A stretch of 64,000 nucleotides of DNA from Myxococcales bacterium (GTDB taxonomy: Bacteria > Myxococcota_A > Polyangia > Haliangiales > Haliangiaceae), in the NCBI GenBank assembly GCA_016706545.1, contig JADJJK010000031.1:21650-85649 (forward strand), written 5' to 3'. The first letter of the stretch is position 1. Each line of letters opens with the position of its first letter. A program made the translations under genes and the position numbers. The notes under the pieces were generated by a model. It was given only the letters and a program-made list of their open reading frames with translations. It was not told the origin of the DNA and did not search any database. This document shows, in pieces, positions 37,210-40,066 of the stretch.

Positions 37210-39132
37210 CTAACCACCTGCTGCGCGACGTGGGCGGATGGTTCGACGGACGTCACGACCGACGCTGCGATGGGCGCTGGGACGGACGCTGTGACGGGTG
37301 CTGCAGGTGGTCCGGCAAGGGGCGGCCGATGGAGAGCGGGTCGACGCCGGTCGCTTCCATCTCGGCGAGGACCCAGCGCTCGATGGCGCTGTGACGGTCG
37401 AGGTCGTCCCACAGGCCGCGCAGGGGGTGGCCATCGGGGTCGAGCGGGGGATCGGCGAGAGATGGGAGCGGTGAGGGTGGCGAGGGTGGTGCTGATGTGC
37501 GGGGGGATGCGGGCGAAGATGAGGAGGGGCGGAAGGTGCGGGGGCTGCTGGGGCCGCGGCAGCGTCGGCGCGGCGCTGGATGCGCGTGATGGTGGCGGCG
37601 GCGTCCCAGCTATCGACGCGCTCGCCGCGCCAGCGGCATTGGCCGGTGGTCGAGGTCAGCGGCAGCGCGGCGTTGGCGGCGTTGGCGGCACGGATCGCAG
37701 GCCAGCCGAGCAGCGGCGGCGCCGGGTGCGGCGGTAGCGGGACGACGGCGCGGCCGTGCGGATCTTCGAAGGCGAGCGCGCCAGTGGGAGATTGCGTGAT
37801 GCGGTAGCCGCGCTCGTGGACATACGAGTGATGGAGCGAGCAGAGCAGCGCTAGGTTGGGCAGGCTGGTCTCGCCGCCATCGGCCCAGTGCTGCAGGTGG
37901 TGGCCCTCGAGGAAGAGGCGGTGATCGCAGCCGGGGAAGCGGCAGGTGCGATCGCGTAGCAAGAGTGCGCGCTTGAGGGCGGCGGGGATGGTGCGGGTCT
38001 TGCGGCCGACGGAGAGTGGGGTGGCGTCGGTGGCGGTAGCTGCGGTGACGGTGGCGACGACCAGGCCGCAGTCGCAGGACAGGCGGCGAGTGGCTTGCGG
38101 AGAGAGCGCAAGGTTGGTCTCGACGGTGAGGGCGACTGGCAGCGAGGCATCGCGGTCGGTGAAAGTGGCTGTGGCGAGAGCGGTGGTTGCGGAGATATCG
38201 GCGGCGGAGTCGGCGGTGTTGGTGGCTGAGTCGGTAGTCGCGGCGGTTTGCTGCAGCAGCGCCACGGGCACGGTGACGATCAGCTCGACGGGCGAACGCT
38301 CGGCGCTGCTGCCGCGCGCGTAGGTGTGGACCAGGGCCATCAGGCCATCGGCGCGGTTGTACGGGCGGCGCGCGGTGGTCGTGGTGGAAGAGCGCTGCGC
38401 TTCCGCGGAAACGTCAGCCGATCGCTCGGCAGGTGCTGGCGCTTCCGCGGAAACGTCAGCAACCTCCGCGGAGGCGCCCGTCGCTCGCTCGGCAGGTGCG
38501 GACGTCTCCGCGGAAGCCGCCGACGTTTCCGCGGAAGCCTCCGCCGGCTCGCGCGTGCAGTCCACCGCGGCTTGCTGCAACACTTGAAGCAGCAGCGCGG
38601 CCTCGTCGGGGCGCAGGCACGCCTTGACGCACACCATGCCCGATGCCGTCGTGGTGTGCGCCACGTAGCGCTCGCTGTCGTGCGGGCGCGCGGCCTTGCT
38701 CGCGGCGTCGGCGCCGAGCACGCCCACTTTGCGGCACACGGTCTCGAGCTGGCTGGCGGTGCAGTGCTGCGCGTAGCCCAACAGCACCGCTTCGGTGGCG
38801 GCGGTGGCCACGCGCGTGATGGCACGAGTCTTGGAATACGAGATCTTCCCCGCGGACAATGCCTCTGATACGAGAGGCAAGGTATGCAGCGCTCTAGCCA
38901 CGCGCAAGTGCTCGCGCGCGGTGCCAAGGTCCCAGCCCACGCGCCAGCTCAGCCAGTGCGCGCAGGTGCCAAAGCCCTGGCGGTACCAGCCGCCGGCCGC
39001 GTCAAAGGTCCGCAGGTCGGCGAGCAGGCGATGCATGGCGGCGTCCAGGTGGACCGCTTGCTCGGCGATGTGCTCGCCCAGAGCTTGAACTTCCTCGACG
39101 GAGAGAGGCTCGCGCATGAGGTTTTGTAGCAT
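37210..39132 (-). CDS. DUF222-domain HNH endonuclease (REP13E12-like selfish-element protein)
   Basis: N-terminal DUF222-like region (LSVEEVQALGEHIAEQAVHLDAAMHRLLADLRTFDAAGGWYRQGFGTCAHWLSW...); C-terminal HNH (CRFPGCDHRLFLEGHHLQHWADGGETSLPNLALLCSLHHSYVHERGY); ATG at 39130-39132. Confidence 0.75.
   Translation of the reverse strand: MLQNLMREPLSVEEVQALGEHIAEQAVHLDAAMHRLLADLRTFDAAGGWYRQGFGTCAHWLSWRVGWDLGTAREHLRVARALHTLPLVSEALSAGKISYSKTRAITRVATAATEAVLLGYAQHCTASQLETVCRKVGVLGADAASKAARPHDSERYVAHTTTASGMVCVKACLRPDEAALLLQVLQQAAVDCTREPAEASAETSAASAETSAPAERATGASAEVADVSAEAPAPAERSADVSAEAQRSSTTTTARRPYNRADGLMALVHTYARGSSAERSPVELIVTVPVALLQQTAATTDSATNTADSAADISATTALATATFTDRDASLPVALTVETNLALSPQATRRLSCDCGLVVATVTAATATDATPLSVGRKTRTIPAALKRALLLRDRTCRFPGCDHRLFLEGHHLQHWADGGETSLPNLALLCSLHHSYVHERGYRITQSPTGALAFEDPHGRAVVPLPPHPAPPLLGWPAIRAANAANAALPLTSTTGQCRWRGERVDSWDAAATITRIQRRADAAAAPAAPAPSAPPHLRPHPPAHQHHPRHPHRSHLSPIPRSTPMATPCAACGTTSTVTAPSSAGSSPRWKRPASTRSPSAAPCRTTCSTRHSVRPSAHRSVGRDVRRTIRPRRAAGG
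38390..38560. repeat. intragenic direct repeats carrying the palindrome TTCCGCGGAA (5 copies) encoding AETSA-type peptide repeats
   Basis: GCGCTTCCGCGGAAACGTCAGC duplicated 38394/38439 plus three further TCCGCGGA(A/G)G copies. Confidence 0.55.
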
Positions 39133-39392
39133 GGCGATTTTCGGCGCCGGATTTCGAGTCTGGCGTGCCCCAGGTGCCGCGGAAGCGCGGGTGGCGCGAA
39201 TTTTCGTGGGGTGCGCGGGTTGATGGGGCATGTAGCGCGCGTTGGGGTCGCAGGTGAGGAGAATGCGGCGGGTTGGCAGCGTGGAGGGCGCGTTGGCGCG
39301 GAGAGTGTCAAGAGGAATGTTGATATATATATATTCCATGGAGGATCTTTAGTTGGCGAATGTGTCCGGTAGGCGGACACGAGCGAGCAGAG

Positions 39393-39472
39393 ATCGCGGA
39401 AACCTCCGCGGAAACTTGATGTGATCCAAGTCGCAGCGCGTTTCCGCGGAAGCCTCGGGGCTGTGGACGGTG
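39393..39472. repeat. ~80-bp hairpin-forming repeat element copy A (CCGCGGAAAC ... GTTTCCGCGG inverted arms around GTGATCCAAGTCGCAGCGCG)
   Basis: ~88% identical to copy B at 39835..39914; self-complementary arms read directly. Confidence 0.6.
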
Positions 39473-39729
39473 CCGGGCTGTGGACAACCGCGCTCGTCGC
39501 ATTTGGGCAGGAGCGATGCGCGTAAGCGGCGCGGTTGACCACAGCCCTTGGAGAGGCGCAGGAGGCCAGGTGCAGCAGGCGTGCTTGAGGGGACGGCGCG
39601 CCTCTCCACACCGCCGCACAGCCCCTGCTGTTTTCAGAACCCTGAGTTTTTTATTTTTGTACCAGAACCCAGAACCCGGAACGGATCGCCAGGTAGCGAC
39701 AAGGGTGAGCGCGTGGGAGGTGGGTAGGC

Positions 39730-39825
39730 CCAGCACGGTGGTTGGGTCAAGCACGGTGGTTGGGTCAAGCACGGTGGTTGGGCCTGGCACGGTGGTTGGG
39801 TCGAGCACGGTGGTGCAGGCACGGG
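39730..39825. repeat. 18-bp tandem repeat (AGCACGGTGGTTGGGTCA) x ~5
   Basis: read directly; lies between the two 80-bp repeat copies, next to an AT-rich patch at 39640-39670. Confidence 0.7.
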
Positions 39826-39834
39826 TCACGCGGG

Positions 39835-39914
39835 TCGCGGAGACCTCCGCGGAAACGTTGGCGTGATCCAAGTCGCAGCGCGTCTCCGCGGAAGCTCCGG
39901 TGCTGTGGACGGTG
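39835..39914. repeat. ~80-bp hairpin-forming repeat element copy B
   Basis: direct repeat of 39393..39472, 442 bp away. Confidence 0.6.
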
Positions 39915-40066
39915 GCGCGGGACGGGACTAAGACGGACCAAGACGGATTAAGACACGCGAAGCGGAGAAACGCTGGAGGCCCTGATTTCTCCGCGGCGCC
40001 GAGGCGACCTGGTACGCTACGCGCGGGATGGAGGCTGCGGCTCCGGGCCGCAGCCAAAGGAGGAAC

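Follow-up and report, generated by a model that had tools for sequence, protein, structure and literature searches.

What is the block of DNA that separates two lipoprotein genes at positions 37210 to 40066 of a myxobacterial sequence, and why does one short palindrome recur both inside its gene and in the DNA upstream of it? The sequence analyzed here, referred to as the window, is a stretch of 64,000 nucleotides from Myxococcales bacterium (assembly GCA_016706545.1, contig JADJJK010000031.1, positions 21,650 to 85,649), and all coordinates below are those of the window. The block encodes a protein with a DUF222 domain and an HNH nuclease domain, preceded by a leader that contains several kinds of repeats. 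An initial annotation, made from the sequence alone, assigned the protein to the family of the REP13E12 repeats, described the leader repeats as hairpins, and suggested a selfish element or an integration hotspot. The sequence features that it listed were all confirmed at the positions given. The reading towards which we lean, with modest confidence, is that the block represents one of many dispersed copies of a cassette in which a DUF222-HNH protein is combined with its own putative cis sites and would thereby be self-addressed. The 16-bp palindrome is probably recognized by the ParB-like domain that is predicted in the nuclease itself.

The palindrome and the N-terminal domain

The window contains 13 copies of the motif TCCGCGGA, where 3.65 ± 1.83 would be expected, and that number was reached in none of 100 shuffles. 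Ten of these copies are located between 38402 and 41320: five in the gene (38402, 38444, 38465, 38507, and 38528), in agreement with the initial annotation, four in the leader (39405, 39443, 39846, and 39885), and one at 41313, which is the further copy that had been placed near 41318. The three copies outside the block correspond to chance expectation, and the motif is also at chance level in the flanks of L007 and L009, two metagenome contigs that carry other copies of the unit. Within the window and these flanks, the motif is specific to the element. The sequence TTCCGCGGAA forms the center of the palindrome CGTTTCCGCGGAAACG, which is 16 bp long.

The intragenic copies are found in the segment that codes for the inter-domain linker (38395-38545, minus strand). 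This segment is built from 21-bp units in both orientations and includes a 40-nt inverted repeat (38441-38480/38499-38538). The peptides ASAETSA and ADVSAEA represent one and the same DNA unit read in opposite orientations, and the number of units varies among paralogs. On the sense strand the palindrome reads nnC GTT TCC GCG GAA ACG, corresponding to xVSAET. The rare valine codon GTT is used at 13 of 15 motif positions (five copies), and at about 7 of 170 valine codons elsewhere. Within the motif, TCC, GCG, and GAA are fixed as well, and SAE outside the linker has ordinary codons. In 88 more distant homologs, SAE averages about 1.8 occurrences per protein, where 0.29 would be expected. The position ahead of V is free and can be taken by R, C, D, N, T, F, or A, which fits a need for the third-position C alone. 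The flanking residues are coupled, V being accompanied by T or A and D by S (V-T 57, V-S 7, D-S 33, and D-T 2). In the DNA of L132, which encodes a D...S protein, and of L001, a Kofleriaceae homolog, the site is CGATTCCGCGGAATCG, a symmetric change from T3:A14 to A3:T14 that keeps the dyad. Because of the codon choice, the free neighbor, the coupled residues, and the symmetric compensatory change, the palindrome is shown to be constrained as nucleic acid and not merely as a peptide. The constraints overlap: a DNA signal also limits the sequence of a protein-coding linker.

The protein consists of an N-terminal domain of DNA-binding type, a disordered linker, an intact HNH motif, and a conserved C-terminal helix. 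It belongs to both Pfam families by the gathering cut-offs, with 39.5 bits for DUF222 (PF02720; cut-off 24.4, E-value 5.4e-10) and 25.3 bits for HNH (PF01844; cut-off 21.4), and the assignment to the REP13E12 kind was thereby upheld. The site of ParB, parS, is TGTTTCACGTGAAACA, and the Noc-binding site (NBS) is TATTTCCCGGGAAATA. Since the arms of the palindrome resemble those of parS and NBS, the fold of the N-terminal domain was examined. The model of the domain of the window protein (amino acids 1-145, encoded at 38683-39117, minus strand) has a mean predicted local distance difference test (pLDDT) score of 91.5. In a Foldseek search with this model, the top 12 matches were all ParB, Spo0J, or Noc proteins with probabilities of 0.90-1.00, and the probability was 0.38 at rank 13. 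The Noc structure 7ng0 was superposed at 2.2 Å over 106 columns. At the sequence level, HTH_ParB is the second-best Pfam match for two of three N-terminal domains (E-values 0.03-0.04, below threshold), and hhalign placed DUF222 residues 31-143 on Spo0J residues 109-228 with weak E-values of 0.03-0.075, the ParB alignment being shallow (Bacillus only). These weak signals fall on the same residues as the structural match. A sequence search of the PDB with the family profile returned only HNH relatives and no ParB; the HNH part is weakly similar to McrA and to the HNH domains of Cas8f-HNH fusions and IscB. By modelling, this N-terminal domain is shown to have a ParB/Noc/KorB-type helix-turn-helix DNA-binding fold, and no paper connecting DUF222 or 13E12 to ParB was found in the literature search. 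The presence of a site of the parS/NBS class in gene and leader, a ParB-type domain, and an intact HNH motif suggests that the protein binds its own gene.

Copies of the unit and their age

The protein search revealed about 33 paralogs, which are 76-91% identical, are named "MAG: Myxococcales bacterium" (MAG, metagenome-assembled genome), and are distributed on at least 25 contigs. The accessions of the 10 paralogs checked are all inside the run MBK7533909-MBK7539270, which indicates one genome. At least 10 diverged paralogs of the unit, and probably about 30 in all, are located on other contigs of the same MAG. At the DNA level, the boundaries of the copies rest on four metagenome contigs from ENA (L006-L009). 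With blastn these are 86-89% identical to the window from about 39934 (39801 for L009) down to 37208/37255. Beyond these limits their flanks are unrelated and encode a LysR protein, methyltransferases, and a RecD2-like helicase. The homology spans both the leader and the gene, and therefore the upstream repeats are in the same unit as the gene. The whole repeat unit (37208-39950, minus strand) is about 2.7 kb long and consists of a leader of about 800 bp, the DUF222-HNH gene, and a 3' tail of about 45 bp. The copy-number check proposed with the initial annotation thus found the unit to be neither single-copy nor syntenic, with four DNA copies between unrelated genes.

The ends of the copies are ragged. 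The left end includes a full distal direct repeat in L006 and L007, where it starts at the same base (GGGCCCTCCTGCG...), about 100 bp of it in the window, and begins inside the 18-bp array in L009. Three right ends (the window copy, L009, and a solo fragment) have ...GGTGGTTAGC with GGTTAGC in common, and L006 diverges about 50 bp earlier. The solo fragment (28150-28263, plus strand) corresponds, in inverted orientation, to the final ~115 bp of the unit, comprising the end of the coding sequence and the 3' tail. It is 94% identical to 37231-37325, nearer to the window copy than whole copies are to one another, and its end coincides precisely with the stop codon of a hydrolase gene (28260-28937, minus strand). 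Neither terminal inverted repeats nor target-site duplications were seen at the copy ends, in a sample where no copy has both ends intact. The unit has no transposase gene, DUF222-HNH being its single ORF (open reading frame). In a lineage with 55% identity (L010 and L011) the gene is likewise multicopy, and both a tandem pair and a fragment from inside the gene occur. This lineage does not have a leader of the window type, except for an AT-rich and -35-like segment, CCTCTTGAC, about 200 bp before the ATG. In L011 the tandem DUF222 genes are at 6001-7686 and 8282-10069, the fragment of 333 bp is upstream at 5210-5542, and the linker of the second gene is expanded by Ser/Gly/Asp-rich repeats. 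The 3' end of L008 (~2339-2406) reads CTGTCTCTTATACACATCT..., a Nextera adapter, and thus this contig end and the last residues of the protein P0002 are an assembly artefact.

The copies have diverged at synonymous sites by a dS of 0.21-0.43. The ratio of nonsynonymous to synonymous divergence (dN/dS) is 0.05-0.11 in the N-terminal domain and 0.2-0.34 in the middle and HNH part, although dN/dS in a repeat family can mirror selection on the copied lineage and not on every copy. The mean pairwise divergence is 0.091 in the proximal repeat of the leader, 0.20 in the part resembling a 5' untranslated region (from the -35-like box to the ATG), and 0.20-0.33 at synonymous sites (pS). These values show that the protein and the leader are under purifying selection and that the leader does not evolve neutrally. 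The copies are old, and because dS is high and purifying selection is present, the unit is not a recently active insertion sequence. Of the two suggestions in the initial annotation, the selfish element holds insofar as the block is a multicopy cassette of REP13E12 type in unrelated contexts, but transposon hallmarks are missing and the copies are old. For an integration hotspot there was no evidence, given the differing left ends and the terminal inverted repeats not seen.

Leader, coding sequence, and neighboring genes

The leader includes two direct repeats. The proximal one (39391-39598, minus strand) contains palindromes at 39405-39412 and 39443-39450, and the distal one (39835-39934, minus strand) at 39846-39853 and 39885-39892. 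Their segments 39394-39475 and 39835-39917 are 88-90% identical, each with two motif copies as an inverted pair. The initial annotation had described hairpin-forming direct repeats of 80 bp with ~88% identity. The identity and the inverted pairs are as stated, but the repeat is about 180-200 bp long in full-length copies, that of the window being shortened to ~100 bp at its distal site, and the pairs are better read as paired, dyad-symmetric, parS-like candidate protein-binding sites. The proximal repeat also has an 18-bp interrupted stem (GGCTGTGG-T-CAACCGCGCC/GGCGCGGTTG-T-CCACAGCC) and DnaA-box-like 9-mers at 39462-39487 and 39535-39543: a perfect TTGTCCACA at 39479-39487 on the minus strand, TTGACCACA, and CCGTCCACA. 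These words coincide with the arms of the 18-bp interrupted inverted repeat. A stem-loop, GGAGAGGCGC...GCGCCTCTCC, extends across the start of the proximal repeat (39551-39607) and is conserved in the copies. At the truncated distal end, GGACTAAGAC is repeated three times in tandem (39925-39954).

Between the direct repeats, an A/T-rich tract followed by three CCAGAAC units occupies 39634-39682 (core ~39634-39665, units at 39662-39682), and its sequence varies between copies. Next to it is a tandem array of the 18-bp unit AGCACGGTGGTTGGGTCA (39719-39814), which had been counted as five units and comprises 4.6 copies over 39732-39814 with 90% match. Its copy number differs between copies of the element and is larger in L007. 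One array unit contains TGGCACGGTGGTTGG, and a sigma-54 promoter was considered there; the sequence has no conservation in the other copies, and the idea was dropped. Besides the A/T-rich stretch known from the initial annotation there is a second, unmentioned patch at 39320-39345. It belongs to a segment (39307-39345, minus strand) in which the AT-rich patch is followed by a -35-like CCTCTTGACA about 200 bp upstream of the ATG. This candidate promoter segment is kept in five of five copies and in L010 and L011. Relative to the -35-like box, the palindrome pairs of the leader are located ~100/137 bp and ~540/579 bp upstream and the intragenic palindromes roughly 740-870 bp downstream. A small hairpin with a 7-8-bp stem, GTGTCCG-GTAGG-CGGACAC, is located at 39365-39383 on the minus strand.

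The DUF222-HNH ORF occupies 37210-39339 on the minus strand. The likely start is the ATG at 39117 (MREPLS...), and the coding sequence from there (37210-39117, minus strand) is the annotated protein MBK7538002.1 of 635 amino acids. The HNH motif CRFPGC...EGHHLQHW...N...HHSYVHE (37825-37944, minus strand) is intact by Pfam and by its sequence, the Cys/His zinc ligands and the catalytic His/Asn being present. Relative to the family consensus, the C-terminal ~130 amino acids, a Pro-rich part, are out of frame. A tblastn search with intact paralogs changes frame at 37500-37560 (minus strand), where a G-run is present at 37500-37506, and most paralogs read through at the matching position. The consensus frame ends ...RPLPDHLQHPSQRPSQRPSQRRS*, with its TGA at 37255-37253. 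The frame change could be a real, pseudogene-type mutation or a homopolymer error of long-read assembly. The paralogs P0004, P0011, and P0019 likewise look frameshifted.

The block separates lipoprotein paralogs B (35812-37080, minus strand) and C (40028-41257, plus strand), as described initially. They are divergently oriented, with 33% identity (E-value 2e-31), and a further paralog A is 27% identical to B. Low-complexity Ala-rich repeats follow the signal/lipobox region in both B (36782-36863, repeats of 12/24 bp) and C (40244-40313, 23 GCC units), and C has a weak FG-GAP/EF-hand-like DxDGDG motif. The isolated motif copy GCGCGGAGCCCTCCGCGGAAGC (41302-41323) lies between the convergent ends of paralog C and a FAD-linked oxidase gene. 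It matches the leader site at 18 of 22 positions with no longer similarity found; it could be a relic site or a chance or terminator hairpin, and its membership in the element is uncertain.

Proposed mechanism, alternatives, and known systems

In the proposed mechanism, dimers of the protein would bind the palindromes in their own gene and leader, hence the term self-addressed. We infer both this binding by the DUF222-HNH protein and its effect. KorB acts from distant operators, some of its sites being far from the promoter. In a similar manner, binding at the leader and intragenic sites would most likely repress the promoter of the cassette, and given the spacing of the sites around the -35-like box, such autorepression from a distance is the simplest role. 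Binding may also position the HNH domain to nick nearby DNA. Nicking would stimulate gene conversion or duplication between copies, and the resulting recombination would explain the variable 21-bp linker units, the ragged ends, and the solo, partial, and internal fragments. It would also fit the gene-conversion activity reported for REP13E12 loci.

The distribution of the palindrome elsewhere was investigated in JGI metagenomes by scanning for TTCCGCGGARACG-N(12-40)-CGTYTCCGCGGA, and at least 120 loci were recovered. In most loci the complete 16-mer is present in both arms, with 173 exact copies among the matches listed. Fifteen of 120 loci among the matches listed are DUF222-HNH genes with 33-50% identity, in which the pair has the same linker position; among these matches a third site often follows about 200 bp further on. 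Sampled loci free of DUF222 are located between housekeeping genes, and their spacers fall into recurring families. In soil metagenomes, more than 100 intergenic sites contain such pairs, and pairs with recurring spacers are seen in many unrelated places between genes. In the window and in the flanks of L007 and L009, the motif is confined to the cassette. In L124, 14 tRNA genes are arranged on one strand (2423-4653) with a palindrome pair between two of them (3703-3749). Tandem runs of the palindrome, with periods of 54, 14, and 29 bp, are present in L014 (47-269), L036 (6784-6856), L069 (4167-4263), and L126 (3867-3940). The exact leader repeat had no match in JGI metagenomes, and the palindrome pair had none in IMG/VR, plasmids, or phages. 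No fetched locus contains a canonical parS or NBS site within 2 mismatches, and a literature search with the motif string returned primers and eukaryotic sites only.

Several observations weigh against a self-addressed cassette. Among the matches listed, 105 of 120 loci have no DUF222 gene in the fetched flanks, so another protein could be the binder. Eight orthologous Steroidobacteraceae loci among the matches listed carry a pair 110-180 bp upstream of mnmG. The window copy itself has no perfect 16-mer, its best sites having 1 mismatch, and the palindrome is absent from the DUF222 homologs L002-L005 from Actinobacteria (two), Solibacter, and Dormibacterota, so the cis site is not universal in the DUF222 family. 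Hairpins, too, could account for the symmetric covariation. No complete sigma-70 site in the leader emerged from the consensus promoter scan. On the side of the protein, the Foldseek E-values are weak (0.14-1.1) and the ParB likeness rests on predicted structures; HTH_ParB (PF17762) scores 14.4-14.8 bits in two of three N-terminal domains, below the cut-off of 22.6, so that they are not members of this Pfam family; and the ParB/Srx CTPase domain is absent, with no ParBc match in Pfam and none in the model.

In the main rival explanation, the palindromes would serve as operators for a different host protein, a ParB/Noc-like or other dimeric regulator, of whose regulon the DUF222-HNH genes are mere members, DUF222 itself binding something else. 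The 105 DUF222-free loci, with exact 16-mer pairs in intergenic positions beside housekeeping genes, make such an owner plausible. The Steroidobacteraceae (Gammaproteobacteria) loci point the same way: L012, L023, L026, L042, L084 (7004-7057), L085, L119, and L129 have the pair between divergent genes including mnmG/gidA, and both palindromes are perfect CGTTTCCGCGGAAACG and do not vary, in contrast to the drifting spacer. In these loci the palindromes are followed by a conserved GGTTCCCTGGCACTTTTACA block. What a separate regulator leaves unexplained is the site kept in the DUF222 linker across 33-90% identity, with its rare codons and symmetric covariation, as well as the match between the parS/NBS-like class of the site and the fold of the protein that carries it; nor is the motif enriched outside the element in the window. 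We regard this explanation as unlikely, though the most serious of the rivals.

Hairpin, transposon, and origin-like explanations are less well supported than a separate owner of the sites. As hairpins of RNA or single-stranded DNA, the paired motifs would serve as an mRNA stabilizer, attenuator, terminator, or recombination signal, and the conserved leader block of ~320 nt may act alongside the nuclease as a non-coding RNA. Compared with shuffled sequences the leader folds far better (z = -6.25), its conserved block has diverged less than synonymous sites, the arms are able to form stems of 13-16 bp, the small hairpin at 39365-39383 has one compensatory change (T:A in the window copy, C:G in other copies), and many metagenome pairs follow a gene closely or lie between two genes. 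For a hairpin there is no need that each arm be a perfect 16-bp palindrome, as in the 173 instances among the matches listed, and such arms would favor misfolding; single sites and pairs 174 bp apart exist as well. Covariation in the long stems was considered as support for RNA and rejected, since the substitutions include mismatches on either strand with no consistent strand. The promoter/terminator scan gave no terminator-like or promoter-like signals, the palindrome pair has no match in Rfam, and the Rfam scan of the window yielded only spurious miRNA-model matches on the intragenic inverted repeat, tRNAs elsewhere, and no leader family. Hairpins are improbable as the main explanation. A conventional mobile element (insertion sequence, composite of miniature inverted-repeat transposable elements, or homing-endonuclease cassette) inserted between the lipoprotein paralogs, with the repeats as its ends or target, would account for the dispersed copies in unrelated intergenic contexts, the left end common to L006 and L007, the GGTTAGC of three right ends, the solo 3' fragment, and the tandem and partial copies of the related lineage. 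It has little probability in view of the missing transposase and terminal inverted repeats, the left ends that differ among four copies, and copies that are 11-14% diverged with selection maintained. An iteron-type replication origin, functional or as a relic, or a region under DnaA control is a highly improbable explanation of the leader. The 18-bp array adjoins the A/T tract, and the perfect TTGTCCACA with two near matches per repeat is kept in the copies. DnaA-box-like 9-mers (up to 2 mismatches) are present in 15% of metagenome spacers against 3% of controls, an excess of 4-5-fold in the pair spacers that is inflated by related loci. However, these words are the arms of an inverted repeat, the sequence of the A-tract and the length of the array vary freely between copies, the unit has no Rep gene, and active origins would not be compatible with about 30 copies on the chromosome.

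Returning to the self-addressed cassette, a wider version can be put forward only tentatively, as possible but rather doubtful. DUF222-HNH proteins including REP13E12 would be an unrecognized nuclease branch of the ParB/Noc/KorB superfamily, whose cognate parS-like palindrome in the coding sequence would turn each gene into a selfish or regulatory module that is self-addressed. The pairs dispersed between genes in soil bacteria from several phyla would make up a binding or landing network for these proteins, and site and protein would co-evolve through symmetric changes. What is added here, in part from models, is that the motif is identified as a parS-like dyad site constrained at the DNA level and DUF222 as a putative ParB-like DNA-binding domain. 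This would provide a first testable mechanism for a protein family without an assigned function, and if true, the roles of the ParB family would widen beyond segregation, nucleoid occlusion, and plasmid gene control. The natural compensatory variants of the 16-bp candidate site make the question of binding and cleavage directly testable, and a DNA signal that constrains a coding linker is a caution for codon-based analyses.

The cassette shares features with several known systems. Like free-standing HNH homing endonuclease genes, it has an HNH nuclease, a selfish-looking multicopy spread, and an intergenic position; unlike them, it carries its recognition-like site inside the gene instead of splitting it, has no association with an intron, intein, or conserved target gene, and exists as old, diverged copies. 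With REP/RAYT and the Rickettsia palindromic elements it shares short palindromes in both orientations, intergenic and in frame in a coding region, whereas it has no Y1 transposase, its site is a 16-bp dyad and not a hairpin of 35-150 bp, and the motif is confined to the cassette in the genome sample. It lacks the full make-up of an iteron-type origin: the array and AT tract are present but variable, and there is no Rep gene. The similarity to the ParB-parS, Noc-NBS, and KorB-OB systems lies in the predicted fold of the N-terminal domain and in a 16-bp dyad site with identical arms, GTTTC...GAAAC, and as with KorB operators the sites are in multiple copies, some far from the promoter. The differences are the central 4 bp (CGCG instead of ACGT or CCGG), the absence of an N-terminal CTPase domain and of a ParA partner nearby, the fusion to an HNH nuclease, the position of sites inside the protein's own coding sequence, and the sub-threshold HTH_ParB match. 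A 2025 survey described ParB-CTPase-HNH fusions and did not mention DUF222 (PMC12704722). These also combine a ParB-related module with HNH, but theirs is the CTPase fold and here it is the DNA-binding helix-turn-helix part only.

The closest relative is REP13E12. Genes of this DUF222/HNH ("13E12") kind are common in Actinobacteria, Myxococcota, and other soil phyla. The host here is a myxobacterium, the copy number (~30) is far higher, the unit includes a conserved leader of ~800 bp, the palindrome is found in the myxobacterial-type clade only and not in the two actinobacterial homologs examined, and no role in prophage attachment is evident. In common with REP13E12 of Mycobacterium tuberculosis are the combination of DUF222 and HNH, multiple copies dispersed in one genome, and partial or rearranged copies. 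The M. tuberculosis copies are reported gene-conversion hotspots without a defined function (PMC13061034; PMC10589994), and a 2026 study of gene conversion still listed no defined biological function for 13E12 genes (PMC13061034). Self-addressed nicking by the DUF222-HNH protein may explain why REP13E12-type repeats are recombination hotspots.

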